Notes: generated from the letters alone by a model not told the origin. Shown: positions 682-32,000, numbered from the stretch's first letter. The stretch: DNA of 32,000 nt from Wolbachia endosymbiont of Cimex lectularius (GCF_000829315.1 NZ_AP013028.1:300001-332000); one strand, 5' to 3'. A program made the numbers and translations.

Positions 682-759
682 CTCATTATTAATCTATGCT
701 TACTTTACCTCACATTTCCAAGATTTTAAACAGGTTCTAAGAAGCTTTTCGCACTATTA

Positions 760-1097: not shown

Positions 1098-1428
1098 TGA
1101 ATTGCTTTAGCTATAAATATTAAGAAATTTACCAAGCGAGAAAAAAAGCAAAAGAAACCCCGCTAGCTAGTTATTCACTATCTATCTTTTAAATTGGCGT
1201 TTTTTATTGTCTTAAACGCTTTAACAAGCGCATTTTAGCTTATATTAGGTAAAAACCTTGAAAGTTTATAAAGACATGAGGTGCACATAGTGCAAAAAAT
1301 TAAACATAAGACGCCAAGTACATTGAGTTTTTTGTCGTTTTATCTGCACAGACTGAAGATAAATAATAGCTTCAGTCTCATTATAAAGGGGTTGGAGGAA
1401 CTTATCAAGTAGTTTTTTTGTTTCTATT
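1098..1428 (-). repeat. Promoter-bearing intergenic cassette, copy A (candidate sRNA / mobile promoter unit)
   Basis: On the minus strand: A-run, -35 TTGATA (1403-1408), 17-nt spacer, -10 TATAAT (1380-1385). A perfect 9-bp hairpin AGACTGAAG/CTTCAGTCT follows just downstream. The 3' box is ACGCCAATTT...GGGGTTTCTTTTGC + T7 (1141-1161), followed by the tail CTCGCTTGGTAAATTTCTTAATATTTATAGCTAAAGCAATTCA. Confidence 0.75.
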
Positions 1429-1537
1429 AGATGACATACGCTGCTAAAAGTTTGTTATATGGTTATGCAAAAGGTCTATTTACTCTGAGTATATTACATG
1501 TATACTTATTACTAAATTAAATTTGAAATGATAAGAA

Positions 1538-5401: not shown

Positions 5402-6556
5402 ATGAATTATGATGTAATCATTTCAGGTGGCGGGTTGCTTGGTCTTATTACTGCTATTGGCCTAAGTAATGACTCTGTGTCTGTAGCTGTGATTGAGAAA
5501 AATAGCTTACCGCGCGTAATTGATGATAATCGAGCATTTGCTATTTCTCAGGGGTCAAAAAAAATACTGGAAAAATTAGGGATTTGGCAGTTCATAGAGA
5601 GCGAAGCTGAACCAATACTTGATATATGCATACTAGATGGAAATAGTCCGGTTACTGTGCATTATGATCATAAAATGGTCGGTGAAGAGCCAATGGGCTA
5701 TGTTATCAATAACGCTACCATATGGAGTGCAATCAATAATAATTTTTTGAATAAACTGAATATATACTCTCCGCATTCTTGTAAAACAATAGCTTGTGAT
5801 GCAGGATTTGTAGAAGTTACTCTTGACGATAATCGGCAATTAATATCATCGCTACTTATCTGCGCTGAAGGTAAAAACTCCAAACTATCGGAGTTATTTT
5901 CTATACCAGTAATAAAATTTGATTATAAGCAAAGTAGTATAGTATTTAATGTAGAACATGAACTGCACCACCGAAACTTAGCTGTGGAGCGGTTTTTTCC
6001 CGGTGGTCCATTTGCGATTCTGCCGATGAAGGGTGGTCATACTTCTTCGATAGTTTGGACAGAAAAATCTGAAATTTCAAAAATGCTGATGAGCCTATCT
6101 GAAGAGGAGTTTATCGCAGAACTCAAAAAAAGATTTGGCTCTTACTTGGGAAAAATAAAATTAGAGGGTGAAAGAAAATCTTATCCTTTAAGCTTTGCTT
6201 TTGCAAAAAAGCTGTATAAAGGCAGAGTTTTGCTTATTGGCGATGCGGCCCATTCGATTCATCCAGTTGCAGGACAGGGCCTTAATCTTGGAATTAGAGA
6301 CGTAGAAAGTGTTATAAGACACATAACTGCTGCAAAAGCGTCTGGTATTGACGTTAGCAGTAGTTATCTGCTGAAGAGAATTTCACACGATAGGTGCTTT
6401 GATAATTTTACCATGGCGCTTACAACTGATGGATTAAATAGGATATTTTCCAACAGAATATTCTGCGCTAAGGTACTGAGAAATCTTGGTTTAATGGTAG
6501 TTGAAAATTCAAGTTTCCTCAAAAAACACTTCATACGTCACGCTATGGGGTTATAG
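5402..6556 (+). CDS. ubiH: UbiH/UbiF/VisC/COQ6-family FAD-dependent ubiquinone-biosynthesis hydroxylase
   Basis: 384 aa. N-terminal GGGLLG dinucleotide fold and the GDAAHSIHPVAGQGLNLGIRD motif. Confidence 0.85.
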   Translation: MNYDVIISGGGLLGLITAIGLSNDSVSVAVIEKNSLPRVIDDNRAFAISQGSKKILEKLGIWQFIESEAEPILDICILDGNSPVTVHYDHKMVGEEPMGYVINNATIWSAINNNFLNKLNIYSPHSCKTIACDAGFVEVTLDDNRQLISSLLICAEGKNSKLSELFSIPVIKFDYKQSSIVFNVEHELHHRNLAVERFFPGGPFAILPMKGGHTSSIVWTEKSEISKMLMSLSEEEFIAELKKRFGSYLGKIKLEGERKSYPLSFAFAKKLYKGRVLLIGDAAHSIHPVAGQGLNLGIRDVESVIRHITAAKASGIDVSSSYLLKRISHDRCFDNFTMALTTDGLNRIFSNRIFCAKVLRNLGLMVVENSSFLKKHFIRHAMGL

Positions 6557-6870
6557 AAACAAAAAAAACTACTTGACAACCTTCACCAGTCCCCTTACAA
6601 TAGAATTGTGAGTGTTTTAAGCCTAAAATTTATCTTTAATCTTTGTATTAAATAACAAAAGCACAGTATAAAACAAGGCGTGTTATGTTTTATTTTTGCA
6701 GCATGGACACTGCATGTCTTTATAATTTTTTGTCTACATTAGCTGAGCCTCGCTTACTAAGCGGTGTAAAAGAGAACCGGACGCCAAGTTTTTGAGAGAA
6801 CAATAAACAACTCACGTTGCAGGGTTTCTTTTGTCTTTTTTTAAAATTAGTTAGAAATTTAATCAACCTT
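6555..6870 (+). repeat. Promoter-bearing intergenic cassette, copy B
   Basis: Starts at the ubiH stop codon: TAGAAACAAAAAAAACTAC. -35 TTGACA (6573-6578), 17-nt spacer, -10 TACAAT (6596-6601). 3' box ACGCCAAG (6781-)...GGGTTTCTTTTGTC + T7 (6822-6842). Confidence 0.75.
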
Positions 6871-6880
6871 GTTTTTTTTA

Positions 6881-7741
6881 GAACCTGTTTAAAATCTTGG
6901 AAATGTGAGGTAAAGTAAGCATAGATTAATAATGAGGTGTCTATGCAGAAAAGTTATCCAAGTAATATAAGTCAAGAGCAGTTTGAAAAAATCAGGCCAA
7001 TTTTGGAGAGTAGCAAGCAGAAAACAAAACCAAGAAAACTTGATTTGTATGACGTATTTTGTGGGGTGTTGTACGTCTTAAAAAGTGGTTGTCAGTGGAG
7101 GATGTTACCAAAGGGTTTTCCAAGATGGGAAAGCGTATATTACTATTTTTGAGTGTGGAGTAAAAAGAGTGGAGAAGAGCCAAGCTTGTTGGAATTAGTC
7201 TTAAAAAAAATTAGTTGGAGAGGTCCGTATCAGCAATGGTCGGAAAAAGAAAACTAGCTTTTGTATAATTGATTCTCAAAGCGTTAAAAACGCAGATACT
7301 GCTGAAAAAAAAAGGCTATGATGCAGGTAAAAAGATTTCAGGGATAAAGCGCCATATTGCAGTTGATACACAAGGTTTGCCACATGCAATTTATGTAACA
7401 ACGGCAGAAGCAACTGACCGTAGCAGTGCTGTGAAAATGGTCGAAAATGCTAAAGCAAACCTCTCTGAAGTTAAAAACATACTGGTTGATGCTGGCTACA
7501 CAGGAGAAAATTTTGCAACACAAATAAAAGCTATCATTGGTGCGACTGTTGAAGTAATAAAGCGAAGTGAGTTACACACTTTCGTCGTATTGCCAAAAAG
7601 ATGGGTTGTTGAACGCTCTTTTGCCTGGTTAGAAAAGTGCAGGCGATTGTGGAAAAATTGCGAGCGGAAGCTCAACACTAGCTTACAGATGATAGTCCTC
7701 TCCTTCATTTCTCTCCTGTTACGAAGATTTTAAACAGGTTC
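6881..7741 (+). mobile_element. IS5-family insertion sequence, copy 2 (complete ends, decayed transposase)
   Basis: 17-bp terminal inverted repeats GAACCTGTTTAAAATCT (6881-6897) and AGATTTTAAACAGGTTC (7725-7741). Flanked by a direct TTA duplication (6878-6880 and 7742-7744). 861 bp. Confidence 0.93.
6937..7733 (+). pseudogene. IS5-family transposase, inactivated (nonsense plus frameshift relative to copy 1)
   Basis: CGA to TGA at 7150-7152 truncates OrfA to 71 aa. A9 at 7304-7312 (A8 in copy 1) breaks the DDE frame right after DSQSVKNADTAEKK. There is also G to A at 7247. Confidence 0.85.
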
Positions 7742-7744
7742 TTA

Positions 7745-7937
7745 CAAAAAAATTGCTTGACAAGTTTTGGCATCTCCCTTATAATGATATTATAGGTATT
7801 TACAACCCCAAGGTCAGCTAGTTGTCAAGCGTATAGAGCATTAACGCCAAGTTATTAAAATAGATATTGGCCAGGGTTTCTTTTGCCTTTTTTTCACTTA
7901 GTAAATTTTTCAATATTTATGACTAAAGTAATTCAAG
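7745..7937 (+). repeat. Promoter-bearing intergenic cassette, copy C (short form)
   Basis: A-run, -35 TTGACA (7757-7762), 17-nt spacer, -10 TATAAT (7780-7785). Then ACGCCAAG...GGGTTTCTTTTGCC + T7 (7874-7894) and the tail CACTTAGTAAATTTTTCAATATTTATGACTAAAGTAATTCA. Confidence 0.75.
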
Positions 7938-18488: not shown

Positions 18489-18767
18489 ATGCAAGATTTA
18501 CAGCTACATTATCCCATAGTGATAGAATTGGACGATATAAAAGGTACAAAACTGAAGTTAATAAAGATTGTTGCATGGCTAATAAATAAGAGATTCAGAA
18601 CACAAAAAAAAGCAGCAGCCTTTCTAAAGATTGATCAACCTAAAGTATCTCAAATTAATAAGTTAAAAATTGAAGGGTTCTCTTTAGAATACTTGCTTAA
18701 CTTATTAGTTGCATTGGATCAAAACATACGCGTGAAAATAAAGTACAGTATCCATTCAGGGGCGTAG
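18489..18767 (+). CDS. XRE-family helix-turn-helix protein (HTH_37/antitoxin-like), solitary
   Basis: 92 aa. TQKKAAAFLKIDQPKVSQINKLKIEGFSLEYLLNLLVAL matches the XRE HTH plus the C-terminal helix seen in type II antitoxins. AAGGA RBS. Confidence 0.65.
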   Translation: MQDLQLHYPIVIELDDIKGTKLKLIKIVAWLINKRFRTQKKAAAFLKIDQPKVSQINKLKIEGFSLEYLLNLLVALDQNIRVKIKYSIHSGA

Positions 18768-18769
18768 TG

Positions 18770-19226
18770 AATATTGAAGCAAAAGTGGTGTCAGCTACTT
18801 GCATGACACCGTCTGCTACACAAATAAATCGCAATATTCGTACAGCTATGCGTTAATGGTAGAAATTTTAGAGAGAAGTTCTATACACAATCACTGACAT
18901 TTTTCCCTAGGTTGACGCCATTGTCTGTTCAGCGGAATGGTAAAATGAGATAGACAAGATGCTCTAAAAAAGTAATCATATAGTAAAAGTGAGTTTACAA
19001 CAAAGGGTGTTATCCCAGTGTCGGAGCACTGGGATAACACCCTTTCCATAATCATCAAAACGTCGTATTTTAACATAAAACAGCTACTTTTATACTCACC
19101 AACTTAATAAAATTCCTGGATGCCAGGGTCAGCTACTTGCATGACACCCTAGTGGTAGTCTCAAATCACAACGTTCGTATAGTTGTGTGTCAGCTACTTA
19201 CATGACACCACTTTTGCTTCAATATT
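18770..19226. repeat. MITE-like element (R2) bounded by 24-bp perfect terminal inverted repeats
   Basis: AATATTGAAGCAAAAGTGGTGTCA at 18770-18793; its exact reverse complement at 19203-19226. Inside are a 16-bp-stem hairpin GGGTGTTATCCCAGTG/CACTGGGATAACACCC (19004-19041) and the 110-bp core (19041-19150) shared with R1. Confidence 0.85.
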
Positions 19227-19266
19227 TACCATGCCCTTAAATATATACTTCTGGAATCAATATAAT

Positions 19267-19342
19267 TGGTGGCTGAGGAGGGACTTGAACCCACGACCAA
19301 GAGATTATGATCCTCCTGCTCTACCAACTGAGCTACTCAGCC
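19267..19342 (-). tRNA. tRNA with CAU anticodon (elongator Met or lysidine-modified Ile2), CCA encoded
   Basis: Manual cloverleaf: GGCTGAG-TA-GCTC-AGTTGGTA-GAGC-A-GGAGG-ATCATAA-TCTCT-TGGTC-GTGGG-TTCAAGT-CCCTC-CTCAGCC-ACCA. 76 nt, with one T:T mismatch in the T-stem. The G1:C72 pair argues against an initiator. Confidence 0.85.
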
Positions 19343-20635
19343 TAATTGAAGACCTTGTTATATATATGGTCTATATGCTTTGTATAATAAGCAAAATCAA
19401 ACAAAGATTCAAGTTTTTCAGAGTCAATAACTCCAAGCAAGGATTTGTCTTGTTTCAATTTGGACAGAAAATCACTGTTGTCTTGTTTCACTTTCATTGC
19501 ATTGCTCTGAACAATTTTATACGCTTCTTCCCTAGTTAGACCACTATTTACTAACTCAAGCAATACACGCTGTGAGAAAATTAAACCTTTTGCTGAATTT
19601 AAGTTCTTTTCAATGTTTTCCTCATTAATCACTAATTTATCTATTAAATCTGTCAATCGCACTAAAGCAAAATCCATTGTTATGCAAGCATCAGGAGCAA
19701 TACATCTTTCCACGGACGAATGTGATATATCTCGCTCGTGCCACAATGCAACATTTTCCAGTGCAGGAAACACATAGCTACGTATTAAACGTGAAAGTCC
19801 AGTTAGATTTTCACTTAAAATAGGATTACACTTGTGTGGCATAGCAGAGCTTCCCTTCTGCCCAGTGGAAAAATATTCGGAAACTTCGCCAACTTCAGTT
19901 CTTTGTAAATGACGAATTTCAACGGCAACATTTTCCATTGAACTTGCAATCACCCCTAAAATTGAAAAGAACGCAGCGTGCCTATCACGAGGAATTACTT
20001 GAGAAGATATAGTCTCAGGTATAAGTCCCATTTTTTTTCGCTACATATTCTTCAACAAATGGACCAACATTCGCAAAATTACCTACTGCGCCTGATATTT
20101 TGCAAGTTGAGATCTCCTTTTGTACATTAATTAGCCTTTGGTAGCTGCGTTTAAATTCTGCATAAAACCTGGCAAATTTTAACCCAAGTGTAGTTGGCTC
20201 TGCATGCATTCCGTGACTACGCCCAACGCACACAACCCCTTTGTAATCCTCAGCTTTTTTTTTCAACGCCGCAAGTAAGTTTTTTAGATTTTCAAGTAGA
20301 ATATCACACGACTCTTTCAGTTGCACAGCAAGACACGTGTCCAAAACATCAGAACTTGTCATCCCGTAGTGGAGATAACGAACATCAACTCCCACTTTTT
20401 CAGCAATGTATGTGAGGAAAGCTATAACATCGTGTTTTACAGTGGATTCGATTTCGTTGATCCGCTCAATATCAAATTCGATAGTGCCAGAAAGCCTTTC
20501 AGCAACATCATTTGGAACCACTCCTAACTCTGCTTGAGCCTCGCACGCTAATTTTTCTATTTTGAGCCATATATTAAACTTGTTATTTTCTTCCCAAATG
20601 GAAGACATTTCTTTACGACTATAACGAGGAATCAC
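19342..20635 (-). pseudogene. purB: Adenylosuccinate lyase split by a +1 A in a homopolymer (A8; A7 restores a ~430-aa ORF)
   Basis: The two adjacent ORFs (206 aa and 229 aa) are the N- and C-halves of PurB. The junction GCG AAAAAAAA TGG sits at 20031-20038. Strong AGGAGG RBS before the GTG start at 20635. The stop codon abuts the tRNA. Confidence 0.85.
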
Positions 20636-20834
20636 TAAATGGCCTCCTTTTTATTTCTAAGTATCAGTGGGCTTTGTTGCACAGCAACTAAAAAACTTGA
20701 TAGTTGCTGACAAAATTCATTATGAGATAGTCGTTTAACCATTAAAGAAAAAATATGTTACAAAAAATAAAAGTCAGCAACCAAAACGAATATAACAAAT
20801 TTTTCGAGGAAAGGGGACATATTTTTCACTTCGT

Positions 20835-21150
20835 TGATAGACTTCTCGCATAACTTGGGCTAAGCAAAAAAAAAGACAATAAAACCCCGAGTGGCGAGTT
20901 TTGACTCTATAATACTTTAAATTGGTGCTATAATAATCTACTGACGCTTAGTTCAAGCGCGATTTGGCTGAATGTAGAAAAAATGAAAAAGACATGCAGC
21001 CGCTATAATTTGATACAATCCGCCAAAAAATACCCCGAGTTTTTTACTGAATTTTGTCATTGAGCCTGCAGATCAAAAACAAGTTTTGAGTCAGAAATAC
21101 CCTTATTGCTATGGTAACGAAGTTGAAAGAATTTGTCAAGCAATTTTTTG
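20835..21150 (-). repeat. Promoter-bearing intergenic cassette, copy D
   Basis: On the minus strand: A-run, -35 TTGACA (21134-21139), 17-nt spacer, -10 TACCAT (21111-21116). 3' box GCACCAATTT...CGGGGTTTTATTGTC + T9 (20876-20899). Co-oriented with purB, which lies 240 bp downstream. Confidence 0.7.
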
Positions 21151-21424
21151 TAGCCCCCATGGTCTCAAAAACCAGCGTCACGCGCTGAAATGACAACAAG
21201 AGGGAAAAATCTACTGCAGTTAATGGTAATTTAATTAATTCTGATTAAAAATGGAGAGATCAGTTAATGATAAAACAAAAGTGGCGACATGCTGCTTTTT
21301 ACGGTGTGGGGCCGAGGGCAACTGTAGGGCATCGCTCTTGATGCTCTTTTTTTGGTGCCAAAAAGAAAATTTCAGATTATCATATACTTAAGGTGTATTA
21401 GTTGATTAGAAAATTAGTGAAAAA

Positions 21425-21766
21425 ATGCTCAAACACAGCGGCCCAAAGAAATTAAAGTCTATAATAGAAAACTATGCATTAAAATGCATGAAGAGTAAGC
21501 TGAGCAAAAATGAAATACGTCTTATTTTAAACTGGAGAAGCATAGTTGGAGAGGAAATAGCAGAGTGTACGAAGCCAAAAAAGATCTCGTATGCACAAAA
21601 TATAAATTCCGGTGTTTTGCATCTGGTAGTAACAAATGGCAGCAAAGCGCTGGAAATTCAGCATATGGTCTCTCTTATAATGGAGAAAATCACAATATTT
21701 TTTGGCTACAAAGCAGTATATGGTGTAAAAATTAAGCAGGAGAGTATTGACTATTTCGCTGTATAA
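21425..21766 (+). CDS. DUF721 (DciA-like) protein
   Basis: 113 aa. W..IVGE.IA..T.P......GVL.L.V.....A.E.... pattern typical of DUF721 proteins. Confidence 0.65.
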   Translation: MLKHSGPKKLKSIIENYALKCMKSKLSKNEIRLILNWRSIVGEEIAECTKPKKISYAQNINSGVLHLVVTNGSKALEIQHMVSLIMEKITIFFGYKAVYGVKIKQESIDYFAV

Positions 21767-21803
21767 GGTAATCTAAGTACATAAAATAACTTGGTATATT
21801 AAA

Positions 21804-22118
21804 GTGAGTAGAGTTTGCGAATTAACAAACAGGAAAAAGTCTTTTGGTAATAAGGTATCACATTCAAACCGTAAAACAAAGCGCACCTTTTGCTTAAATT
21901 TGTGCAATGTTACGTTGATGAGCAACATATTGAACAAAAAATTTAAATTTCGTGTAGCGTCGAGAACTTTGAGAACTGTGGATTACAAGGGCGATCTTGA
22001 CGCTTTTTTGCTCAACACAAGAACAGTTAAGCTAAGCGAGAAAGCACAAAAAATAAAAAGAAGGTTGAAAAAAGTTTTAGCAAAACAAGAGGTGGAACTA
22101 GCCGTTTCAGATGCATAG
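21804..22118 (+). CDS. rpmB: 50S ribosomal protein L28
   Basis: GTG start. [29 protein letters not shown] is the L28 N-terminal signature. 104 aa with a C-terminal extension. Confidence 0.9.
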
Positions 22119-22974
22119 TAAGCCTACATGGCTCAGGGCAAAAGCTCCAACTGGTGAAATATTCAATGAGACCTTAAACACTGTCAAGTTGCATAATCTG
22201 CATACGGTGTGCGAGGAGACTGCATGTCCAAATATTGGTGAATGTTGGAATAAGCGTCATGCTACTGTGATGATTCTTGGTTCCGTTTGCACTCGCGCTT
22301 GCGCATTTTGCAATGTTGCAACTGGTGTTCCTGATAAATTAGATCCTCACGAGCCAGAAAACTTAGCAAAGGCGATAAAAAGATTAAACTTAAAGCACGT
22401 CGTTATTACCTCTGTTGACCGTGATGATTTACCAGATGGCGGAGCGAATCAGTTTATAAGGTGTATAGAAGAAATTAGAAAGATAATTCCAGAAACAACA
22501 ATAGAGATTCTGACTCCCGATTTTTTAAATAAGAAAGGAGCATTCGAAGCAATTGCTGTTGCCTCACCTGATGTCTATAACCACAATATTGAAACAGTGC
22601 CAAGACTGTATGCAAAGATAAGGCCAAGGGCTCGTTATTTTCATTCACTATATTTGCTGAAGATGGTAAAGCAAATTAATCCTAAGCTTTTTACCAAGTC
22701 AGGGCTTATGGTTGGTCTTGGGGAAACAAAAGAAGAAGTACTTCAGGTTATGGACGATTTACGCAGTGCCGAGGTTGACTTTATAACGATCGGTCAATAC
22801 CTGCAGCCGACTCCAAAGCATGCAAAAATCGATAGATATGTTACGCCAGAGGAGTTTGAGCATTATAAATACGTTGCTTACTCCAAAGGGTTCTTAGTGG
22901 TTGCATCAAGTCCACTGACTAGGTCATCATATCACGCTGAGGAAGACTTTAACAGGCTCAAAGCTTGTCGTTGA
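22111..22974 (+). CDS. lipA: Lipoyl synthase
   Basis: 287 aa. Contains both the CPNIGECW and the radical-SAM CTRACAFC cluster motifs. Overlaps rpmB by 8 nt. Confidence 0.95.
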
Positions 22975-23118
22975 TTCTTGCATAACTTCTCCTTTAGTTA
23001 CGCAAGAAGTCTATCTCCACTTCTTCGAGTTAAGGTTGATTAGCTTTTCTTTAAGTATTATGTACTAAACCTTTAGTTTAAAAATATTTGTTTACAGTAA
23101 AATCTAATCGGAGGAAAT

Positions 23119-24978
23119 ATGCCGAGGCACATTTTTAACATCGTCTGTAGTGAAGATACAGTAGGTAACGATTCTAGGTATAAAAGGATCAAGCTTGTTG
23201 AAAATAAAGATGATGAAGAAAAAACAATAAAATTCTGTGGTCCTTACTTTGGAGCATATAGCATTCGCGAACGAGATGGAAAAGAAATTTTTGAACTATG
23301 GGTTGAGAAGGCAAAGTATAAACTCCGCGGAGATGATTTTTGTGATAGCTGGACAGATGGAGAACTTTACCAGAAGAAAGACATTCCGCTCAATAAGGTT
23401 AAATTAAAGGTAATACTTGATGAAGATTGTGAATATAAGATCGCTGTGTCTGTCGAAGACAGTCAATGGATCACTTTACCTAAATCATCATTATTTGGTG
23501 AAAATCTTAATTTAAAGAAATACTACAATCGAGAACTTAGTTTATTGAGAGGAGAAAATTTCTCATCACTCTCCAATGGTAAATATTACATACCGAAAGT
23601 TATGTACGGCCAAATAAAGATTTGTGAGTTAGCACCTTTTAGCTTTCCAAACTGTGATCGAGGCCAAGCTGAACTTGAGGGTTTCTCATATCCTTGGGTA
23701 AGTGTAAAAAATAATAAAATAGTTGTTGAAAAGAATGGCGAAGGTGAGCTTTTAATTTACTTTGCTGATGGAGATGGAATTCGTTCGACTAATATTAATG
23801 GGGGTACAAAAAATATTGTAGATTATGCAAACTCAGTTTTAAAAGCAGTATTGCTTGAAAATTCAAATATAAGAGAAGTTCTACCTGAGCTTGAGCTTGA
23901 TGATAGTGTGAACTTAGATAAAAGAAAGTTAAACTGCTTAATTAGCAAGACGCACAACGCAGATCTAGCACAAGTTGCTCAGGAATTGGTTACTAACAAA
24001 AAAGATGAGCTAGGAAAAGCAGTTCTGGAAGCAAAGGATAGTGATCAAGAAATCTTGGTAAACAGTTCTGTTTTGCAGGAAGGAGTGGCGAAAAAATTAA
24101 GAGAAAATCCGGGAAATGCAAAGGGTCCTAAAGGTGATAAAGGTGAAGATGGTAAGGATGGAGAAAGTCCATCAGCTGATGCTGTAGCTACTCAATTACT
24201 TACTGGTGAAAAAAAAGATACTTTGGTAACTGAAGTTTCAGGTAATCAGGTTCTAAAAGATGCAGTAACAACTGCTTTGAACAGTGATGATGGTTTTCAC
24301 AGTATTGCCAAAAGATCAACAAATGCTAACAACGCAAAGCAGAAATTTACTTTGCAAAAAGGAGAAAAATTATTGGACGATACCTATGAGGCAAATATTG
24401 TTTCAGATGGTAAGACCATAGCTACTCTACCAAAAATAGGTTACTACATGCTCAATGATCAGTTGGTCGTGCGTAATCATGTTACGAAAGAGGAGGTGGC
24501 TATTCCCAGAGATTTCCATTATTTAAAAGTTATTAAATTTGGCAGTGGTTTTAGCAGTGGTGATTATAAATTGACCTTTTGTAATGTACTTGGTAATGAG
24601 TTTTTTGAGTATAAAAAATATGACCCGCAGTATTCAAATGTTTCGGATGAATATAAGTTCATAAATTTAAATTGTGCGAAAAAAGAATATAACCCCAATC
24701 TCAGCGAGTTATTTGGCCATCGGCCATCGTTTTTCATTATAGAAGAACCTGATGAACCAGGCTCTCCAGGTCATTATCAAGCTGATGTGTTCGAATTAAC
24801 AAATAACAACAAAGGTAGGAAAATGGCTATATTAATTGATAAATTTTGCTATTTTAATGAAAATGATCAGTTTAAGTGTTGCAATTACCACAAAGAAATG
24901 GAGTGCCGTATTTATGATACTTCTGAAATCAATCAAGAATATAGGATAATAAGAGTTAATTTAACCATTCTCATATAG
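23119..24978 (+). CDS. Hypothetical 619-aa protein with a short collagen-like G-X-Y run
   Basis: Long ORF with a GGAGGA RBS 6 nt upstream. Central GPKGDKGEDGKDGES (5 G-X-Y triplets, about 24123-24167) sits between helical-looking segments. Cys-rich C-terminus. I recognise no family. Confidence 0.7.
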   Translation: MPRHIFNIVCSEDTVGNDSRYKRIKLVENKDDEEKTIKFCGPYFGAYSIRERDGKEIFELWVEKAKYKLRGDDFCDSWTDGELYQKKDIPLNKVKLKVILDEDCEYKIAVSVEDSQWITLPKSSLFGENLNLKKYYNRELSLLRGENFSSLSNGKYYIPKVMYGQIKICELAPFSFPNCDRGQAELEGFSYPWVSVKNNKIVVEKNGEGELLIYFADGDGIRSTNINGGTKNIVDYANSVLKAVLLENSNIREVLPELELDDSVNLDKRKLNCLISKTHNADLAQVAQELVTNKKDELGKAVLEAKDSDQEILVNSSVLQEGVAKKLRENPGNAKGPKGDKGEDGKDGESPSADAVATQLLTGEKKDTLVTEVSGNQVLKDAVTTALNSDDGFHSIAKRSTNANNAKQKFTLQKGEKLLDDTYEANIVSDGKTIATLPKIGYYMLNDQLVVRNHVTKEEVAIPRDFHYLKVIKFGSGFSSGDYKLTFCNVLGNEFFEYKKYDPQYSNVSDEYKFINLNCAKKEYNPNLSELFGHRPSFFIIEEPDEPGSPGHYQADVFELTNNNKGRKMAILIDKFCYFNENDQFKCCNYHKEMECRIYDTSEINQEYRIIRVNLTILI

Positions 24979-25057
24979 CTGACCAAGGAAAGGCTTTCCC
25001 ACATCATACCGCCTCAGTCTTAGCCGCTAACGCGTAGCGAAATGACGGTTGTCGGTG

Positions 25058-25530
25058 TTACTTTAGTTATAAATATTTAAAAAATTTACCAAGCGAGAAA
25101 AAAAGCAAAAGAAGCCCTGACCATTGTTTATCTTCAGTATTGGCGTTTTTTTAAGTCTTAAACGCTGCAATTTAGCGACTTTTAAACTGCAACAGACCCT
25201 TAGCTTAAGCGCTAAGAAACTTACTAAGCAGAAAAAAAGACAAAAGAATCCCGTGTTAGATTGTTCTCACTCTCTAATTCTGCAAATTGGCGTACTATAC
25301 TGTCTTAAACGACTTATAAACGCGTTTCAGCTTGTATAGGGAAAAACCTAGAAGCCTAGGTAAAATTAATAAAGACATAAGGTGCACATAGTGCAAAAAA
25401 TTAAACATAAGACACCAACCATAATACTCTTGTCGTTTAATCTGCACAGATGAAGATAACTAAATACTTCCAGTTACATGATAAAAGGAATGGCGAAAGT
25501 TGTCAAGCAGTTTTTTTGACTCTGTTTCTA
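25058..25530 (-). repeat. Promoter-bearing intergenic cassette, copy E (duplicated 3' module)
   Basis: On the minus strand: -35 TTGACA (25501-25506), 17-nt spacer, -10 TATCAT (25478-25483). Two 3' boxes: GGGATTCTTTTGTC + T7 (25232-25252) and GGGCTTCTTTTGC + T7 (25098-25117). The tail is identical in type to copies A, C and F. Confidence 0.75.
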
Positions 25531-25620
25531 TGCCGGTGTTAGCTACAAAGTAGGCTACCGTTTTTTATGCAAATGCAAGAGATCTATTGAAATACCCCTG
25601 CAAAACTATACTATTGATTA

Positions 25621-26754
25621 GTGCACTATAAATTTGAAACTATGGATATATTAGGCAAACTGGTAATCTTACTATCAGTTTTTTTACTCTCTTTTCCTTC
25701 ATATTCATATCAATTTAGAACCAAAGCAAACCAAGCAGTAGTCTTAGATTTAGCCTCAGATTCGTTCATCTTTGAGCATAATTCCGATGAAAAAATGGCC
25801 CCATCTTCAATGAGTAAGTTGATGACTTTATACGTGGCCTTCGATTACCTAAAAGCTGGAATAATCAACATGGAAGATAAGTTTCGAGTAAGTAGAAGAG
25901 CGTGGGAAAGAAAAGGCTCTTCCATGTTTTTGAGGGAAGGTCAATCTGTTACGGTGAAAGAACTACTCGAAGGAATTATAATAGTTTCAGGTAATGATGC
26001 TTGCATCACGCTAGCTGAGGGCATTGCAGGGTCAGAAGAGAATTTCGTAATGGAAATGAACGAAGTTGCGCATAACCTGAATCTAAACAACAGTCATTTT
26101 GTCAATTCAAGCGGGTGGCCGGATGAAAATCATTTTATGAGCGCAAAAGATTTGGCAATATTGGCGAAGAGGATTTTCACTGATTTCCCCGAGTATTACG
26201 ATTTATTTTCTGAGCAATATCTGACATATAATGACATTTTACAAAAAAATAAAAATCTCCTACTTTTTCACGATATCGGAGTTGATGGCCTAAAAACCGG
26301 CTATACAAACGCTGGCGGTTACGGAATTGTAGTATCTGCAAAACGAAACGATAGGAGAATTTTCGCCGTTGTAAATGGGCTGAGTACTGAAAGAGAGCGA
26401 ATAGAAGAGGCAAAAAGACTTATACAGTACTCCTTAAATCATTTTAGCACTAGGAAAATATTCGCTAAAGACGATGTAGTTGAGAAAATAAATGTTCTAT
26501 ACGGAAAAGACAGGAAAGTGCCCATCACAGTTGCAAACGACGTTACTATAACCTATAGCCGCAACTTGCATGATAAAATTAAGGTGCGTGTTGAATATAA
26601 AGATATGATACCTGCACCAATTAAAAAAGGGCAAGAAGTAGGCAAAGTTTTTATAGAAATACCGGGTGTTGAGCAGCAAATAGTACCACTTTATGCAGTA
26701 AACGACGTACAGGAATTAAATTACATAGAAAAGTTTTTTAGGATGTTGTTTTGA
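25621..26754 (+). CDS. dacA: D-alanyl-D-alanine carboxypeptidase (PBP5/6-type, DacA-like)
   Basis: SxxK (SMSKLMT), SxN (SGND) and KTG (KTGYT) motifs, plus a signal-like N-terminus. The start is either GTG 25621 or ATG 25642. Confidence 0.9.
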   Translation: MHYKFETMDILGKLVILLSVFLLSFPSYSYQFRTKANQAVVLDLASDSFIFEHNSDEKMAPSSMSKLMTLYVAFDYLKAGIINMEDKFRVSRRAWERKGSSMFLREGQSVTVKELLEGIIIVSGNDACITLAEGIAGSEENFVMEMNEVAHNLNLNNSHFVNSSGWPDENHFMSAKDLAILAKRIFTDFPEYYDLFSEQYLTYNDILQKNKNLLLFHDIGVDGLKTGYTNAGGYGIVVSAKRNDRRIFAVVNGLSTERERIEEAKRLIQYSLNHFSTRKIFAKDDVVEKINVLYGKDRKVPITVANDVTITYSRNLHDKIKVRVEYKDMIPAPIKKGQEVGKVFIEIPGVEQQIVPLYAVNDVQELNYIEKFFRMLF

Positions 26755-26965
26755 AGCTTAAATGGCGCATCATACCCAAAAGTGAGGCATGTGCAAAGAA
26801 GACGATACTAGCAATAAAGAAAACAAGAGAAAGGAAAACAACAAAGAGGACTAGTCCTTGCCCTACTGTATACAGAATGGCAATTTTTGCCGTTCTGTAA
26901 CTTATACCAATTCCACTACACAGAAAGTGAATAGACAACAGTGGAAAAAGTTATAACTTCATCCA

Positions 26966-27378
26966 ATAGAAACAAAAAAAATTACTTGACAAATCTCACC
27001 AATCCCATTATCATAAGGTTGAAGCTATTTGTTTAACTTCTCAATCTGTGCAGGTTAAAATGACAAGAAAACTTTCAAGGTTTTTACCTAATATAAGCTA
27101 AAACGCGCTTGTTAAAACGTTTAAGACAATAAAAAACGCCAATTTAAAAGATAGATAGTGAATAACTAGCTAACGGGGTTTCTTTTGCCTTTTGTCTGTT
27201 TAGTAAATTTCTTAACGTTTAAAATTAGATCAGTTGTGGTTTAAAAGCAGCCAGATTAGACGTTTAGAATAAAAAAACGCCAATTTATAAAGTTAATATA
27301 AATAATTAGCCACCAACGGGGTTTCTTTTGCTTTTTTTCTCGCTTGATAAATTTCTTAAATATTAAAGCAATTCATGA
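26966..27378 (+). repeat. Promoter-bearing intergenic cassette, copy F (duplicated 3' module)
   Basis: ATAGAAACAAAAAAAATTAC, -35 TTGACA (26986-26991), 17-nt spacer, -10 TATCAT (27009-27014). Two ACGCCAATTT...GGGGTTTCTTTTGC modules about 141 bp apart (27136- and 27277-), the second followed by T7 (27332-27338) and the conserved tail. Confidence 0.78.
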
Positions 27379-27379
27379 A

Positions 27380-27570
27380 CAAACATTTGTTGTAAAAACA
27401 AATGTTATCATTCCAGCGCGTGACGCTGGAATCTAGAAATTTTATTAGGTTGGTGAGCATAAAAGTAGCCGTTTTACGTTAAAACACAACATTTTAATTA
27501 TTATGAAAAACTGGATCCCAGTATCAAGTACTGGAATGACAAGAAAAGGAGACTCTGGGATGACAGGAGG
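27380..27570. repeat. MITE-like hairpin-ended repeat (R3), diverged relative of the R1/R2 core in opposite orientation
   Basis: 9-bp hairpin AACATTTGT/ACAAATGTT (27381-27406). End hairpins ATTCCAGCG-cgtga-CGCTGGAAT and CCCAGTA...TACTGGAATGAC. The reverse complement of the internal segment at about 27436-27520 aligns with the 110-bp core but is diverged. Confidence 0.65.
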
Positions 27571-27730
27571 GGACCACTTTCATGTTACCGTCATAAAGTG
27601 AAATAAGATCCAAGATTTTGTATTAAAAAAATACTTCCCTTTTTCTGGAACACTTTGTATAATGAATTTAGTATTGCATTGCAAATTACTTAAAGTAGAA
27701 CTTTTGGTACTAAATCTACAAGTGGGCTTT

Positions 27731-28264
27731 ATGAATAAAAAATTTTTTTGTTCATCATTATCAATAAAAAGTATAGAGGAAAACGGCGTATTTTCTGGTT
27801 ATGTGAGCGTTTTTAACGTAGTTGATAAACAGAATGATCTGATCTTACCTGGGGCATTTAAAGAAAACTTGAATAAAGATAAAACAACACTTCTCTGGCA
27901 GCACAACCCGAGCGAGCCTATAGGTTATATTATAGATATTCATGAAAATGATGTTGGCCTGTATATAACTGCACATTTACTTTTGGGTATCCAAAAGGCA
28001 GAAGAAGTTTACTTAATGCTCAAGACTGGAGTAATCAACGGACTTTCAATTGGCTATATACCTATAGAGTATGACATTGATCATGAAAGTGAAGCTCGGG
28101 TATTGAGACAAGTGGAATTATGGGAAGTCAGTTTGGTTACTTTTCCTGCAAATTTAGCTGCTCAGGTAGTTAATGTAAAAAGTCAGGATAACGAGCAGAA
28201 GGTGTTGATAAGAGCAATAAAAAAGGCAAGAGATGCGCTTACAGGAACATATATTTCTACTTAA
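27731..28264 (+). CDS. HK97-family phage prohead protease (S78), orphan
   Basis: GYVSVFNVVDKQNDLILPGAF...LLWQHNPSEPIG...GLSIGY...EVSLVTFPAN. Start taken at ATG 27731 (MNKKFF) rather than the upstream 27662. Confidence 0.85.
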   Translation: MNKKFFCSSLSIKSIEENGVFSGYVSVFNVVDKQNDLILPGAFKENLNKDKTTLLWQHNPSEPIGYIIDIHENDVGLYITAHLLLGIQKAEEVYLMLKTGVINGLSIGYIPIEYDIDHESEARVLRQVELWEVSLVTFPANLAAQVVNVKSQDNEQKVLIRAIKKARDALTGTYIST

Positions 28265-28470
28265 AGCTTATTGCAAGCAAGGGCTTTATTGTAAATAGTA
28301 AATACTTACTTAACATTAAAAACGTTCAGGTTAGATTTGACATTAGCATTAATGCTTATTTAATATTTACACCAATATATATAGTTTTGTTACTATTTCC
28401 AATGATCGTTAATAAAATTTGACTCTCAGCTTGGGAAAAGTTTTAAAAGTTTAAAAGATAAGGTAGTTTT

Positions 28471-30852
28471 ATGCTCAATGCTAACAATGAAATTAATGTT
28501 AAGAAGGAAGAAAGAAAACACAGTTGGTCCACCGTGTTTGCTTGGTTATACCTAAAAACGATTGGACGAATATTGCCCAAAAGATGGAACAGATGGGCAG
28601 AAAATATTTTGTACTACGATAAAACTACTGCAAATAATGAAGTTCAAACTGATGCTTTTAAGACAGTAGATGAAAGTGTTCAAGTTGACTTAAAACCCGA
28701 AATTACAGAGAAAGAGAGCCAAAATGTAGTGATAAGCAAAGATGGAGGGGTTCAGACTGATGAAGTAGCATTTCAAGATACGGCAATGCAAACCGAATGC
28801 GTTGAAAAAATAGACAAAAACATTGAAGCTGACTTAAAACCTGAAGTTGCAGAAAAAGATGGTGAGATAACAAGTGAAGATGAAGGAATTTACTCTGAAG
28901 TAAGTGGTGGACCTACCGATGAAGACTGCTTTGATATTGAAGATGAAGGCAAATTGGCTTGGGACAATTACTATAAAGTGTACAGAGAAGATGATGAAGC
29001 ATTGCAATTGGATGATATGAGTCAGGAACTAGAACTTGAATGTTCACGCAATGCCCTCTTACAAAAGATAAATGAAGATTTAGAGTCTAAACTTGCAACA
29101 AGTAATGAAGGCTTGGTAAAAGCTATAGAAACGACAGCGCACCTGGAAGGAAAACTAACTACAATATTAGAGGAAGATAAGCAATTAAAATTGCAACTTG
29201 CAGAATATAAAAAGGATTACACAGAACTGAAAAATGTTTCAGATCAAATAGAAAAAGAGCTCTCGGTTGAGTTAGAGGAAAAGAAAAATGAAGTAGAGGA
29301 AAATTTAGTAGAGATGAGAAAAAAAGATGAAAAAATAAGTAGATTAACACGATTAAATAAAGCATTAGAACAAGATAAAAAAGCAATGCAGGATAAAGTT
29401 GATGAACAACAGCAAACTATATCTGAATTTAAATCATTTACTGATAAAAATGAGGCTGTTGAGAGGGATAATGAGAGCCTACGAATGCAAATCATGGGGC
29501 TTGAGAGTAAAGTTAGTGGGTTAGAAGGCAAAATTAGTAACTTAGGTTGTGAAAAAGGAGCTCTACAATCGAATGTAAATACATTGACTGCTCAATTGCA
29601 AAGTGTTCAAGAATCTAAACAACAACTGGAGGAAGAAAAGAGTAATATCGAGCAACAAAAACAAGCGGAGTTAGAGCAGACTATATGCAAGAATGCTAAA
29701 TTAGAAAGTAAAGTAAGTGAATTGCAAAAAGAAAAAGCCCAGTTTGAAGAGCAGTTAAAAGCTATGGAAGAAGAACGCAAAGCGCACAAGGAAAATCAGC
29801 ATGAGTTAGAAAGTCGATTAAAAAATTTAGGAAGTCAATTAAGTACAGCAACAAACAAGGAAAAGAACTTAGAAAATGATGTTGCTGAATTACAAAAGCA
29901 AGCGCAAGCTTTAGAAGGAAATAAAGAATGGGAGTTAGCTGGAATAGATAGTACCTTAAAGGAAACTTTTTTAACCATCATGGAATTGTTAGTGCAGCAA
30001 CTACTACTAAATAATCAAGAGCAATCTGTAAAAGAAAAAAAGTTAGAGGAGTTAACTTTGTCCTATAGTGATCAAGTACATCAGATTGCAGGCTTACAAG
30101 CAGAAAATCTCTCGTTAGAAGTGAAGAATGGAAAATTGCTATCTGTGATTGAACGATCTATAACAGAGGAAGCTGAAGTGAAGAAAATGGATGAAAAAGT
30201 AAGGCAAAATCAACATAAATTAATCGATCAAATAAAAAAATTGGAAGAAGCATTGAAAGAAAAAGACGCTCAGTACAAAGAGCAATTAAATGAAAATCAA
30301 CATGCATTAGGGAACTTAGAATATAAATTAGAGAGCTTAGAAAGTCAAAGCACTACGGCAAAAATGCAACAACGGAAAGATAGCTCCCACCAAGCGAATA
30401 TGAAATCAATGGCCAAAAGTGAAGCTGATTTATTTCAAAAAAATAAAGGAAGATTGGATAAACAGTTACAAAAAACAAAAAAAGAACCAGTTGAGCAGCC
30501 AAATGAAAAACTTACACCCAATGCTTTCATGAGTTGCACTAGCAGTACTACAAGATTAAAGAATAATTTGACTACTGAGAAAAAAGCAAGTGTTGTTAAG
30601 AAGCATATAAATAATCTATGTAATGAAAAATTTGTGCAGTCCTATACAAATTCTTTACCTGAAGATGCTCTGGAAAAGTCAATAAAAACTAAAGCAAAAT
30701 CCTTAGACTCAAGTAATGTTCAAAAACTGGCAAAAAATATAAGCAATGAATTTACGTTACCAAAAAATACAAACAGCATACCTAACTCTTTTCTGAGCCG
30801 CACTAGCAGCACCGCAAGCATAAACTCATTGAACGTTAGAGTAGGTTCTTAG
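28471..30852 (+). CDS. Hypothetical 793-aa coiled-coil protein (candidate secreted effector or structural protein)
   Basis: Long ORF. N-terminal hydrophobic patch WSTVFAWLYLKTIG, a duplicated acidic DLKPE(I/V)xEK(E/D) unit, about 450 aa of heptad-rich E/K/Q/L sequence, and Ser/Thr-rich C-terminal repeats. Confidence 0.75.
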   Translation: MLNANNEINVKKEERKHSWSTVFAWLYLKTIGRILPKRWNRWAENILYYDKTTANNEVQTDAFKTVDESVQVDLKPEITEKESQNVVISKDGGVQTDEVAFQDTAMQTECVEKIDKNIEADLKPEVAEKDGEITSEDEGIYSEVSGGPTDEDCFDIEDEGKLAWDNYYKVYREDDEALQLDDMSQELELECSRNALLQKINEDLESKLATSNEGLVKAIETTAHLEGKLTTILEEDKQLKLQLAEYKKDYTELKNVSDQIEKELSVELEEKKNEVEENLVEMRKKDEKISRLTRLNKALEQDKKAMQDKVDEQQQTISEFKSFTDKNEAVERDNESLRMQIMGLESKVSGLEGKISNLGCEKGALQSNVNTLTAQLQSVQESKQQLEEEKSNIEQQKQAELEQTICKNAKLESKVSELQKEKAQFEEQLKAMEEERKAHKENQHELESRLKNLGSQLSTATNKEKNLENDVAELQKQAQALEGNKEWELAGIDSTLKETFLTIMELLVQQLLLNNQEQSVKEKKLEELTLSYSDQVHQIAGLQAENLSLEVKNGKLLSVIERSITEEAEVKKMDEKVRQNQHKLIDQIKKLEEALKEKDAQYKEQLNENQHALGNLEYKLESLESQSTTAKMQQRKDSSHQANMKSMAKSEADLFQKNKGRLDKQLQKTKKEPVEQPNEKLTPNAFMSCTSSTTRLKNNLTTEKKASVVKKHINNLCNEKFVQSYTNSLPEDALEKSIKTKAKSLDSSNVQKLAKNISNEFTLPKNTNSIPNSFLSRTSSTASINSLNVRVGS

Positions 30853-32000
30853 CATAAAGTAACAACTCCTCTTTCGTTAAGGAATAGGAGTTATCTCCCC
30901 AATGTTGCTTTAACAACTCTAAACTTCTACCTAAACTTTTCCCCGACTGATAACCTATATTTATCAAATCATCGCCAGATAAAGGAAATTTCGGGATATC
31001 GAACACCTTAGCAAATGAGATGTATTCATCAACATTTGTTCCAGACTCAACACCACAGATTTTGACCAAATCACAATATAATTCCCTACCAAACAAGGAT
31101 ATGTATTTTTCTTGCTCCTTTTCTGAAAGCTCTGTTTTGATATCATTGGACAGTAAAAATAGCAGCTTTTTCCTTTGCTTGTTTGAAAGGCGTAAAAACT
31201 TGCTTATGTATTCTCCAAGGTTTTGCCTGTCTTCGGTAGTTTTAAGGAGCAACGCTAATTTTATTATCGCATCAGTACCAAAAAGAAGCGGTGAGGACAG
31301 AATTTTGCATTTTACTTCTTTTGGAATAATTTTTTGCAAAACATCAGATTTTTGCATGCTCTTAAGCGTTGGAGCGGGGTCATCACACTCTAGCAATTTA
31401 AACATTTCGTCTCTTATTCTCTCTCCAGAGAGGTTTTGGATCATGTGCGAATGCTTTTTGCATACGTCCAATATTTCATCACTCAAATTTCCAACGCATA
31501 TTTTTGCGTGAAAACGAAACACTCTTAAAATACGTAGATAGTCTTCCTTAATTCTATCTTCAGCATTACCTATAAAGTTTAACCTTCGCGCTTTTAAGTC
31601 CTGAGTACCACCAAAGTAGTCATATATATGGCCGTACTTGTCTGCATATAGGGCGTTAAACGTGAAGTCGCGCCTTGAAGCATCAGCTTGCCAATTGTTG
31701 GTAAACTCCACTTTCGCATGTCTACCGTCGCATTGAGTATCATACCTTAGCGTTGTGATCTCAAAAGATCTTTGGTTTAAAACTGCAGTGATAGTTCCAT
31801 GCTTTAAGCCAGTTGGAATAGTTTTTATATTGCGAAGTTTGAGCGCTTCAATCGCTTGATTAGGCAGTAGATTGGTAGCAAGGTCAATGTCGTGAATGTC
31901 ACACTGCAGAATCGAGTCCCTTACACACCCACCGACAAGCCTTGCCTCACTACCAAACTTCTCTATGGCATCAATGATTAAACTAGTTTCATGGTCAACT
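30836..32000 (-). CDS. cca: tRNA nucleotidyltransferase / poly(A) polymerase family (CCA-adding enzyme), N-terminus beyond window
   Basis: The reading frame continues upstream of the tracked GVG-start ORF: ...RLVGGCVRDSIL...DIDLAT...GLKHGT...RRDFTFNALY, the class II nucleotidyltransferase motifs. Open to the window edge. Converges on the 793-aa ORF with a 17-nt overlap. Confidence 0.85.
   Translation of the reverse strand, partial: VDHETSLIIDAIEKFGSEARLVGGCVRDSILQCDIHDIDLATNLLPNQAIEALKLRNIKTIPTGLKHGTITAVLNQRSFEITTLRYDTQCDGRHAKVEFTNNWQADASRRDFTFNALYADKYGHIYDYFGGTQDLKARRLNFIGNAEDRIKEDYLRILRVFRFHAKICVGNLSDEILDVCKKHSHMIQNLSGERIRDEMFKLLECDDPAPTLKSMQKSDVLQKIIPKEVKCKILSSPLLFGTDAIIKLALLLKTTEDRQNLGEYISKFLRLSNKQRKKLLFLLSNDIKTELSEKEQEKYISLFGRELYCDLVKICGVESGTNVDEYISFAKVFDIPKFPLSGDDLINIGYQSGKSLGRSLELLKQHWGDNSYSLTKEELLLYAKNLL

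Follow-up and report, generated by a model that had tools for sequence, protein, structure and literature searches.

A dispersed intergenic repeat of Wolbachia that probably forms a promoter-led, non-coding transcription unit

The question raised by six related cassettes in the intergenic DNA of the Wolbachia endosymbiont of Cimex lectularius, all within a 32,000-nucleotide stretch of its genome (GCF_000829315.1, NZ_AP013028.1:300001-332000; hereafter the window, with positions counted from its first letter), is whether they are transcription units in their own right or inert repeats in which a promoter happens to be found. We conclude, with a probability of roughly 55%, that each cassette is a copy of a Wolbachia-specific repeat of ~300-480 bp and forms a complete, stand-alone, non-coding transcription unit, and the promoter is best described as the part that selection sees. 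A preliminary description of the window had already preferred transcription units to inert repeats, and this preference is supported by the transcription of homologues in other strains, by the conservation of the promoter hexamers and by the loss of the -10 box in two related genomes.

All six copies (A-F) are present in the window sequence at the coordinates and on the strands where that description had placed them, and the promoters are as it had read them: the -35 hexamer is TTGACA in B-F and TTGATA in A, the -35/-10 spacer is exactly 17 nt in 6/6 copies, the -10 hexamer is of the form TAnnAT throughout (TATAAT in A and C, TACAAT in B, TACCAT in D, TATCAT in E and F), and a conserved tail is seen in A, C, E and F. 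The modules that it took to be shared hold with some exceptions: A-tract, -35, spacer and -10 recur in all six, with the preceding AGAAAC absent upstream of C and D, and the ACGCCAA box, the GGGnTTCTTTTG box and the T-run of the 3' module recur in all copies, with D departing from both boxes (GCACCAA; GGGGTTTTATTG). What had been called a variable body turns out to be homologous end to end, in two subtypes (A-type and D-type) plus deletion forms (C and F). A further correction concerns E and F, which carry two 3' modules each, 135-143 nt apart (the commonest form elsewhere); Tandem Repeats Finder (TRF) called no tandem repeat at this pair. The 5' pattern AAAAAAYTRCTTGAYAA has 6 exact matches in the window against 0.41 expected, a count that 0/100 shuffles reach, and the 3' box GGGNTTCTTTTGYYTTTT has 7 exact matches plus D at 2 mismatches, rising at ≤3 mismatches to 11 matches against 1.2 expected. 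In a promoter scan of 20000-32000, three copies rank among the best matches, E and F at 11/12 and D at 10/12. The copies and their parts are listed below.

26966-27378, plus strand: copy F (reference), A-type with an internal body deletion and two 3' modules
26974-26985, 26986-26991 and 27009-27014, plus strand: copy F promoter (A-tract with linker, -35 TTGACA, -10 TATCAT)
27021, plus strand: copy F predicted start, at G (GAAGCTATTT)
27136-27142 and 27277-27283; 27176-27193 and 27319-27338, plus strand: copy F 3' modules (CGCCAA boxes; T-boxes)
27199-27215 and 27343-27360, plus strand: copy F tails
25058-25530, minus strand: copy E, full A-type in the canonical "533" form (two 3' modules), divergent from dacA
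25501-25506, 25478-25483 and 25471, minus strand: copy E promoter (-35, -10 TATCAT, predicted start)
25287-25293 and 25140-25146; 25232-25252 and 25098-25117, minus strand: copy E 3' modules (CGCCAA boxes; T-boxes)
25213-25228 and 25076-25093, minus strand: copy E tails
20835-21150, minus strand: copy D, D-type with a single 3' module, located upstream of purB in the same direction
21134-21139, 21111-21116 and 21104, minus strand: copy D promoter (-35, -10 TACCAT, predicted start, AAGGGTATTT)
21021-21026, 20922-20928 and 20866-20888, minus strand: copy D boxes (TTGGCG, GCACCAA, T-box)
7745-7937, plus strand: copy C, short deletion form with one 3' module almost directly after the promoter
7757-7762, 7780-7785 and 7792, plus strand: copy C promoter (-35, -10 TATAAT, predicted start)
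7844-7850, 7874-7894 and 7897-7913, plus strand: copy C 3' part (CGCCAA, T-box, tail)
6555-6870, plus strand: copy B, divergent A-type with one 3' module, beginning at the stop codon of a ubiH-like gene
6573-6578, 6596-6601 and 6608, plus strand: copy B promoter (-35, -10 TACAAT, predicted start)
6781-6787 and 6822-6842, plus strand: copy B 3' part (CGCCAA, T-box)
1098-1428, minus strand: copy A, A-type with one 3' module, divergent from typA
1403-1408, 1380-1385 and 1373, minus strand: copy A promoter (-35 TTGATA, -10 TATAAT, predicted start, GAAGCTATTA)
1141-1160 and 1120-1136, minus strand: copy A 3' part (T-box, tail)
1312-1317 and 1194-1200, minus strand: copy A long-range boxes, TTGGCG(T) pairing with ACGCCAA

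The hairpin of copy B is TGCAG..CTGCA instead of TGCAC..GTGCA. An IS5-type insertion sequence (IS; 6872-7747, with inverted ends and a TTA duplication) lies between the tail of B and the A-tract of C, the latter adjoining its right end; B and C were adjacent before it inserted.

That such promoters are used can be read from published data on other strains. Highly transcribed wMel intergenic regions (IGRs) were chosen for 5' rapid amplification of cDNA ends (RACE) by Woolfit et al. (2015), and two of the resulting clones, IGR-1047 and IGR-1021, are family members whose RNA starts (GAAGC/GAAGG) at the 7th-8th nucleotide after the -10; over 144-245 nt, the IGR-1047 clone shares 75-77% identity with A, E and F. 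The clones of ncrwmel02 and IGR-498 have no match in the window. By eye, the "specific" primers used in that study for IGR-151, IGR-392, IGR-921, IGR-1035 and IGR-1049 also resemble pieces of the family. At least three members are found among the Cappable-seq start sites of wMelPop-CLA (oTSS_-_131390, iTSSps_+_1067756 and oTSS_+_1247436) and one among those of wAlbB (oTSS_+_181436), all with the same promoter and start base, as can be seen from the start-site flanks printed in the tables (Suliman et al., 2025). The predicted start ~7 nt after the -10 is therefore seen by both methods in homologues. The transcripts are also abundant: oTSS_+_1247436, a D-type unit, reaches 720 counts per million (cpm) and the wAlbB site 211 cpm, compared with a median of ~111 cpm for gene start sites, in a data set from which reads below a mapping quality of 20 were discarded, so that repeats are under-counted (Suliman et al., 2025). 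In wMel RNA-seq, the member-holding regions IG-151, IG-921 and IG-59 have normalised coverages of 1037-1749 versus 6-33 for their flanking genes, and wMel intergenic regions with members lie at 30-100 times flanking-gene coverage; the same table gives 292 for ncrwmel02 and 104 for ncrwmel01 (Woolfit et al., 2015).

A recently spread repeat could be transcribed as a matter of noise, its promoter-like part being no more than a stretch of a gene-converted, decaying consensus, and the pattern of conservation bears on this. Among 51 distinct units, recovered mostly through a 3'-anchored search, the Henikoff-weighted identity is 98% (1.91 bits) in the -35 hexamer and 84% in the -10 hexamer, followed by 81% in the A-tract, 71% in the spacer, 60% in the discriminator, 70-77% in the body and 56% in the upstream flank. 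The promoter is of the sigma-70 type family-wide, with a 17-nt spacing in 46/49 units and TTGACA as the -35 in 46/49. Because the 5' modules were recognised by a profile hidden Markov model (HMM), there is a detection bias in these figures, yet only ~9 of ~50 untruncated chains lack a recognisable 5' module. The hexamers have not decayed at the rate of the spacer, discriminator and body around them (60-77%). Gene conversion within an inert, selfish repeat would homogenise it evenly, which fits neither the contrast between the -35 and its surroundings nor the fixed spacer length.

The distribution of the family was followed in a sample of 25 Wolbachia loci, each comprising a dacA orthologue and its 10-kb flanks and none selected on the cassette, on which profile HMMs of the 5' and 3' modules were run. 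Cassettes are found in the arthropod-strain loci (L121-L132, L141 and L148). None was found by the HMMs in the 21-kb loci of the filarial Dirofilaria, Cruorifilaria, Dipetalonema and Onchocerca strains, wPpe and others, where a repeat present about once per 30 kb can be missed, and the Litomosoides locus holds one orphan 3' module. At least 11 other strains have a cassette at the site of copy E (divergent from the dacA start), with an A/E-type body in close relatives and a D-type body in L130-L132; different bodies at the same site point to replacement, or gene conversion, between copies. Synteny downstream of dacA is not kept between supergroups, and the F site is comparable only in the closest strains. 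At the dacA-upstream site of the Psylliodes strain (L129 9871-9952) there is a near-perfect palindrome of two facing CTTGACACATTTCGCCAGCCCCCTTA(T/C)CAT copies; this inverted duplication places two promoters back to back, and no 3' module was detected there.

In metagenomes the short 3' box alone was too unspecific (it matched unrelated viral contigs), and a longer box-plus-tail pattern was used instead. This pattern recovers 87 stretches, many of them at contig ends, as expected for a high-copy repeat. Wherever enough downstream sequence is available, a 5' module has a 3' module behind it on the same strand at ~140 nt and often a second at ~290 nt. In the metagenome loci the complete architectures comprise 23 of the 5-3-3 and 17 of the 5-3 form, orphan modules are rare, and 60 chains are cut by contig ends. 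The predicted transcript, from start to first T-run, measures 222-248 nt in 41 distinct units, of which 30 are A-type and 11 D-type; internal deletion forms are C, F, L141 and one L127 copy.

Two members of the dacA sample, L123 and L124, have reduced genomes of ~1.14 Mb in which orthologues of D, E and F are found (those of D in both). In L123, the fourfold-degenerate sites of dacA are 93% identical to the window and the cassette bodies 84-88%, which indicates that the bodies are not under strong purifying selection. The promoter shows a different pattern: the -35 is identical at 18/18 positions and the spacer at 48/51, but the -10 at only 11/19. The -10 boxes read TAACCC, TGCCAT and TATCGC in L123 and TTATGC and TTTCAT in L124, with different hits in the two strains, so that the -10 has been struck independently in 5/5 orthologous copies. 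The 8/19 changed -10 positions of L123 exceed the changes in the body (55/403; p = 0.003), at dacA fourfold sites (9/128; p = 2e-4) and in -35 plus spacer (p = 1e-4), and the -10 excess in L124 gives p = 0.03 and 0.012, all of these being comparisons of small numbers. Loss of the -10 thus outpaced change at neutral sites, which implies a fitness effect of promoter activity, and the lineage-specific loss amounts to a natural experiment on the cost or benefit of cassette transcription. Together with the hexamer identities and the transcription of homologues, these knock-outs argue for the earlier proposal that the promoter is under selection. They also speak against an inert repeat, as do the persistence of same-site units across strains whose dacA genes differ by 4-7% of nucleotides and the very high measured expression. 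That explanation has on its side the high copy number (~40 wMel loci), the breaking of metagenome contigs at the repeat, the near-neutral drift of the bodies, the weak conservation of a fold and the absence of the repeat from the 21-kb loci of streamlined filarial genomes; on balance we consider it unlikely.

How a stand-alone unit would work can be outlined from these parts. RNA polymerase with the housekeeping sigma factor would bind the A-tract (UP-like), TTGACA, the 17-nt spacer and TAtcAT, and transcription would begin at the G or A 7 nt after the -10, as shown for homologues and predicted here. The RNA would be ~235 nt long, with either of two body subtypes and no conserved reading frame, and weakly structured, its consistent feature probably being a helix between TTGGCG (~+60) and ACGCCAA (~+175). 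The polymerase would then meet one or two 3' modules, each with a weak G.U-rich hairpin (GGGG-UUUC-UUUU) and U7-9, which may act as leaky stops. Copies would be inherited vertically and reshuffled by recombination or gene conversion, giving deletion forms and subtype swaps at the same site, while selection would act mainly on the promoter and a few short boxes and leave the body to change at a roughly neutral pace. Among 29 3' modules forming an unbiased set, the CGCCAA box is 90% identical, the T-box 83% and the tail 77%, versus 64% between boxes. Selection on promoter and short boxes with a neutral body implies that strong transcription, or an RNA function based on short motifs, is kept and not a precise fold.

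Several observations weigh against stand-alone non-coding units, beginning with their number and provenance: ~40 copies per genome are more typical of selfish repeats than of small RNA (sRNA) genes, the divergence of the bodies at or above the neutral rate (84-88% vs 93%) argues against a sequence-specific RNA function, and the transcripts were recorded in other strains, from which transcription in the window strain is extrapolated. The 3' end is a second difficulty. The 3' module had been read as a closing terminator; there is no G+C-rich hairpin before the T-run, an intrinsic-terminator scan calls none at any T-box despite the U7-9, and the sole fold is a G.U-rich hairpin such as GCGGGG-UUUC-UUUUGC. 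At least some wMel transcripts do run past the T-run: the RACE primers used on IGR-1047 sit downstream of it, and reverse transcription PCR (RT-PCR) connected IGR-1021 with the gene that follows (Woolfit et al., 2015). We infer that the 3' modules are leaky stops, the second serving as a back-up. Structure is the third. For 28 A-type transcripts RNAalifold returns a weak consensus (-7.6 kcal/mol) and for a mixed-subtype alignment an empty structure; the explicit structure pairs 89.0% of cells vs 87.7% in shuffles, with only 2 double-change pairs, and the mutual information of 128 3' modules yields no stacked Watson-Crick pairs, the subfamily signal dominating. Single-sequence folds are inconsistent between copies.

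The A-type consensus consists of a 5' GAAG/CTTC hairpin and a long-range helix (A)TTTGGCG(T)/(A)CGCCAAA(T), whose 3' arm is the ACGCCAA box of the preliminary description. This helix is paired in 92% of cells, with many changes keeping a G.U wobble; D-type units keep 6-7 bp of it, and the complementarity in copy A was found independently by a repeat search (arms 1194-1208 and 1303-1317). The covariation score is 0.152 vs 0.134 in shuffles, and 1/500 shuffles scores as high. One long-range TTGGCG/CGCCAA helix, without strong covariation, is plausible though weakly supported. No Rfam family covers the cassettes: tRNA-Met is the only match in the whole window that passes a gathering threshold, and a permissive scan of 24900-27500 (E and F) with an E-value threshold adds only a tp2 match that is not credible (27110-27166, minus strand; 21 bits, E 3.4). 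A tRNA-like origin was considered and none was found.

The same features (a strong promoter, a folded leader and a short reading frame) are what the remnant of a small-protein or type I toxin-like gene would leave behind, with a short hydrophobic open reading frame (ORF) and a convergent small RNA. A 37-codon ORF is present in copy E (MFNFLHYVHLMSLLILPRLLGFSLYKLKRVYKSFKTV) and in its close relatives L125 and L200 (the frames of the latter two hand-read from the alignment), the long-range helix links body and 3' region, and units resembling ncrwmel01 converge on A and F. Most copies, however, stop after 13 codons, the ATG is absent in ~8/28 A-type units, the frame is absent in D-type units, C and F, no ribosome-binding-like sequence precedes the ATG, and variants show no codon-position pattern. 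We regard a toxin-like remnant as very improbable, and no ORF is conserved in the family, the sole frame measuring 13-37 codons.

The convergent units belong to a second small repeat, present at 940-1029 (plus strand), 19057-19146 (plus strand) and 27402-27489 (minus strand) and 85-89% identical to the published ncrwmel01 5' RACE clone; cassettes A and F are faced head-on at their 3' ends by the copies at 940 and 27402. A promoter-like site, TTGATA-16-CATAAT at 27527-27500 (minus strand), fits the ncrwmel01 RACE 5' end, and wMel has the same convergent layout beside a class-11 repeat. The WsnRNA46 family (RF02625) has a weak match just outside F (27388-27500, minus strand; 20.9 bits vs a threshold of 65.3) that overlaps the 27402 copy.

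Being short, intergenic, high-copy and devoid of a gene of their own, the cassettes might also be taken for a miniature non-autonomous transposon (MITE, for miniature inverted-repeat transposable element) that happens to carry a promoter, and wMel repeat families with "hallmarks of mobile elements" have been reported (Wu et al., 2004). An inverted-repeat search found none joining the ends of A, E or F, which lack terminal inverted repeats. Every locus in the sample with both flanks matched is occupied, so that in this small sample neither an empty orthologous site nor a target duplication was recognised; D, E and F keep their positions in three genomes; and no cassette match was found on viral contigs (box-plus-tail pattern), phages or plasmids. 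A MITE is, in our estimate, the least credible of the explanations considered.

The main rival to stand-alone units is that the cassettes are promoters that act on their neighbours, leaky read-through driving the downstream gene or colliding with convergent transcription and the RNA being a by-product. In wMel the IGR-1021 transcript does continue into the downstream gene; copy D, situated upstream of purB, extends into a gene-proximal motif; the ends of A and F are met head-on by the ncrwmel01-like units; and among downstream neighbours the co-directional ones somewhat outnumber the convergent ones (24 vs 15). This ratio is nevertheless near random, as is the upstream split (26 divergent, 22 co-directional), so that "feeding neighbours" is not what the cassettes generally do. 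Between the promoter and the next gene there are one or two conserved T-run modules and a median distance of ~290 nt; several copies are directed at the 3' end of a convergent gene (E) or at an IS (A and B), and the genes concerned own promoter-like motifs. We judge an effect on neighbours possible but doubtful. Mobile promoters that feed neighbours had been one form originally suggested for the transcription units; no evidence of mobility was found.

The gene-proximal motif in question, TATGCAAGAGRTCTATT, occurs at 1464-1480 (plus strand), 20836-20852 (minus strand), 22999-23015 (plus strand) and 25572-25588 (plus strand), 4 times against 0.23 expected, each time pointing to a gene start 33-200 nt downstream (typA, purB, an ORF at 23119 and dacA). 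It recurs beside cassettes in many other strains and looks like a shared promoter-region motif. Palindromic repeats of the form GTGTCATTCCAGCG(C/T)GTGACGCTGGAATGACA are found in the intergenic segments 875-1090, 18747-19250, 21172-21198 and 27403-27429, and often directly follow cassette tails, both in the window and in other strains.

If the cassettes are transcription units, what might they be for? Wolbachia is not genetically manipulable, has few regulators and has a poorly understood intergenic transcriptome. A speculative reading, to which we give little weight, is that facultative arthropod Wolbachia retain the units owing to an activity of their abundant ~235-nt RNAs (or of the promoters), and that -10 loss is adaptive silencing upon a change of lifestyle. 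Action in trans could use the TTGGCG/CGCCAA helix, AUGUCUUU and the G/U-rich 3' box, on the bacterium or even the host; alternatively, the RNAs might pair with convergent ncrwmel01-like transcripts, or the strong promoters might serve as polymerase sinks. Were this true, the cassettes would mark the type of symbiosis and, among the functional non-coding RNA (ncRNA) gene families of endosymbionts, would be the largest. Consequences follow if the family explains many of the strongest orphan transcription start sites and "candidate sRNA" regions: locus-by-locus sRNA candidates would need re-reading, filters that drop multi-mapping reads would be hiding a major RNA species, and the cassette promoters would be ready-made, strong, native promoters for future Wolbachia tools.

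The window has a G+C content of 36% and holds, besides the cassettes, housekeeping genes as well as IS5-type transposase fragments. Pfam identifies TypA/BipA, a UbiH-type monooxygenase, Smr, DciA, DacA/PBP5 and a split purB, and we take DnaK and MurE to be present from the look of their translations. The closest relatives of the dacA gene are Wolbachia, at 96% to the Penenirmus auritus endosymbiont and Rickettsiales metagenome-assembled genomes. Features beside the cassettes are the following.

1-746, minus strand, and 6872-7747, plus strand: inverted IS5-family copies, 99-100% identical, with DDE transposase ORFs, the first running off the window start
3431-4327: an ORF with a perfect 12-nt tandem repeat (AAGGTATGGAGA x4.3, 4161-4212) that encodes KGMEKGME... 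near its C-terminus; it overlaps the 5' end of the next ORF, presumably Mrp/ApbC-like (by eye)
19342-20635, minus strand: purB (adenylosuccinate lyase) as two overlapping ORFs (Lyase_1 8-221 / 234-308 plus ADSL_C), a frameshift, pseudogene or sequencing error
23119-24978, plus strand: a 619-aa ORF without a Pfam match, between lipA and cassette E and convergent with E
27662-28264, plus strand: a Caudovirus prohead serine protease domain (Peptidase_S78, E 3e-31), isolated amid housekeeping genes just downstream of F, which may be a phage or gene-transfer-agent remnant

Has the family been seen before? In part it has: it corresponds to anonymous wMel repeat classes of 2004, though to no repeat or sRNA class that bears a name. 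Five verified members, among them IGR-1047, IGR-1021 and the start site at 1,067,756, have wMel loci that appear in Table S1 of Wu et al. (2004, PLoS Biol) under RepeatFinder classes 11, 29 and 4; the "repeat family 8" of that paper, with 45 copies, might be the same element. Class 11 comprises 89 fragments that collapse to ~30 loci of 400-540 bp, and class 29 adds ~16, giving a wMel total of ~40 loci on the assumption that the repeat classes are homogeneous. Class-11 repeats lie inside IGR-151, IGR-392 and IGR-921 and in the VNTR-105 (variable number tandem repeat) intergenic region, a typing locus (Riegler et al., 2012). The typing loci VNTR-141 and VNTR-105 have tandem periods of 141 and 105 bp and include a 23-bp hairpin whose stem is 9 bp, and the paired 3' modules of E and F recur at 135-143 nt. 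A search of the literature available without subscription found no paper naming the element or its promoter-body-stop architecture, and a search of paper texts for the element's own sequence strings gave irrelevant matches only. The family-level reading, its scale in Wolbachia and the lineage-specific -10 loss appear to be undescribed.

The closest known entities are pieces of the family itself. RepeatFinder classes 11, 29 and 4 are the same DNA family, given as anonymous fragment coordinates split over classes, with architecture, promoter and transcription not described there (Wu et al., 2004). IGR-1021 and IGR-1047 are cassette members that were treated as separate loci in a study in which most candidates were dropped for repetitiveness or read-through and only ncrwmel01 and ncrwmel02, both unrelated in sequence to the cassette, were named (Woolfit et al., 2015). 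Several orphan and intragenic start sites of Suliman et al. (2025) are likewise members, and neither of the latter two studies groups them as one family. Outside Wolbachia, the MITE-derived small RNAs of Coxiella burnetii, likewise an obligate intracellular bacterium, are reported to tie multi-copy intergenic repeats to sRNA evolution (Wachter et al., 2018, PMC5896051). The Coxiella elements are inverted-repeat MITEs, whereas the cassette lacks inverted ends and has its own promoter and stop modules.

As a kind, repeat-borne, promoter-carrying ncRNA units are known in other bacteria. The Correia elements of Neisseria are high-copy, intergenic and transcribed, with working sigma-70 promoter elements; they are ~100-155 bp long, have terminal inverted repeats and a TA duplication, and their promoters fire outward into neighbouring genes. 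The cassette, in contrast, is without inverted ends, and its promoter fires into its own ~235-nt body. Repeated complete sRNA genes with conserved promoters are found in the NsiR1 arrays of Nostocales and in alpha-proteobacterial families of the AbcR/alpha-r14 type, which number 2-12 copies and have strong structural conservation and canonical terminators. Compared with these, the Wolbachia cassettes occur as tens of dispersed copies, with weak conservation of fold and with G.U-rich stop hairpins.

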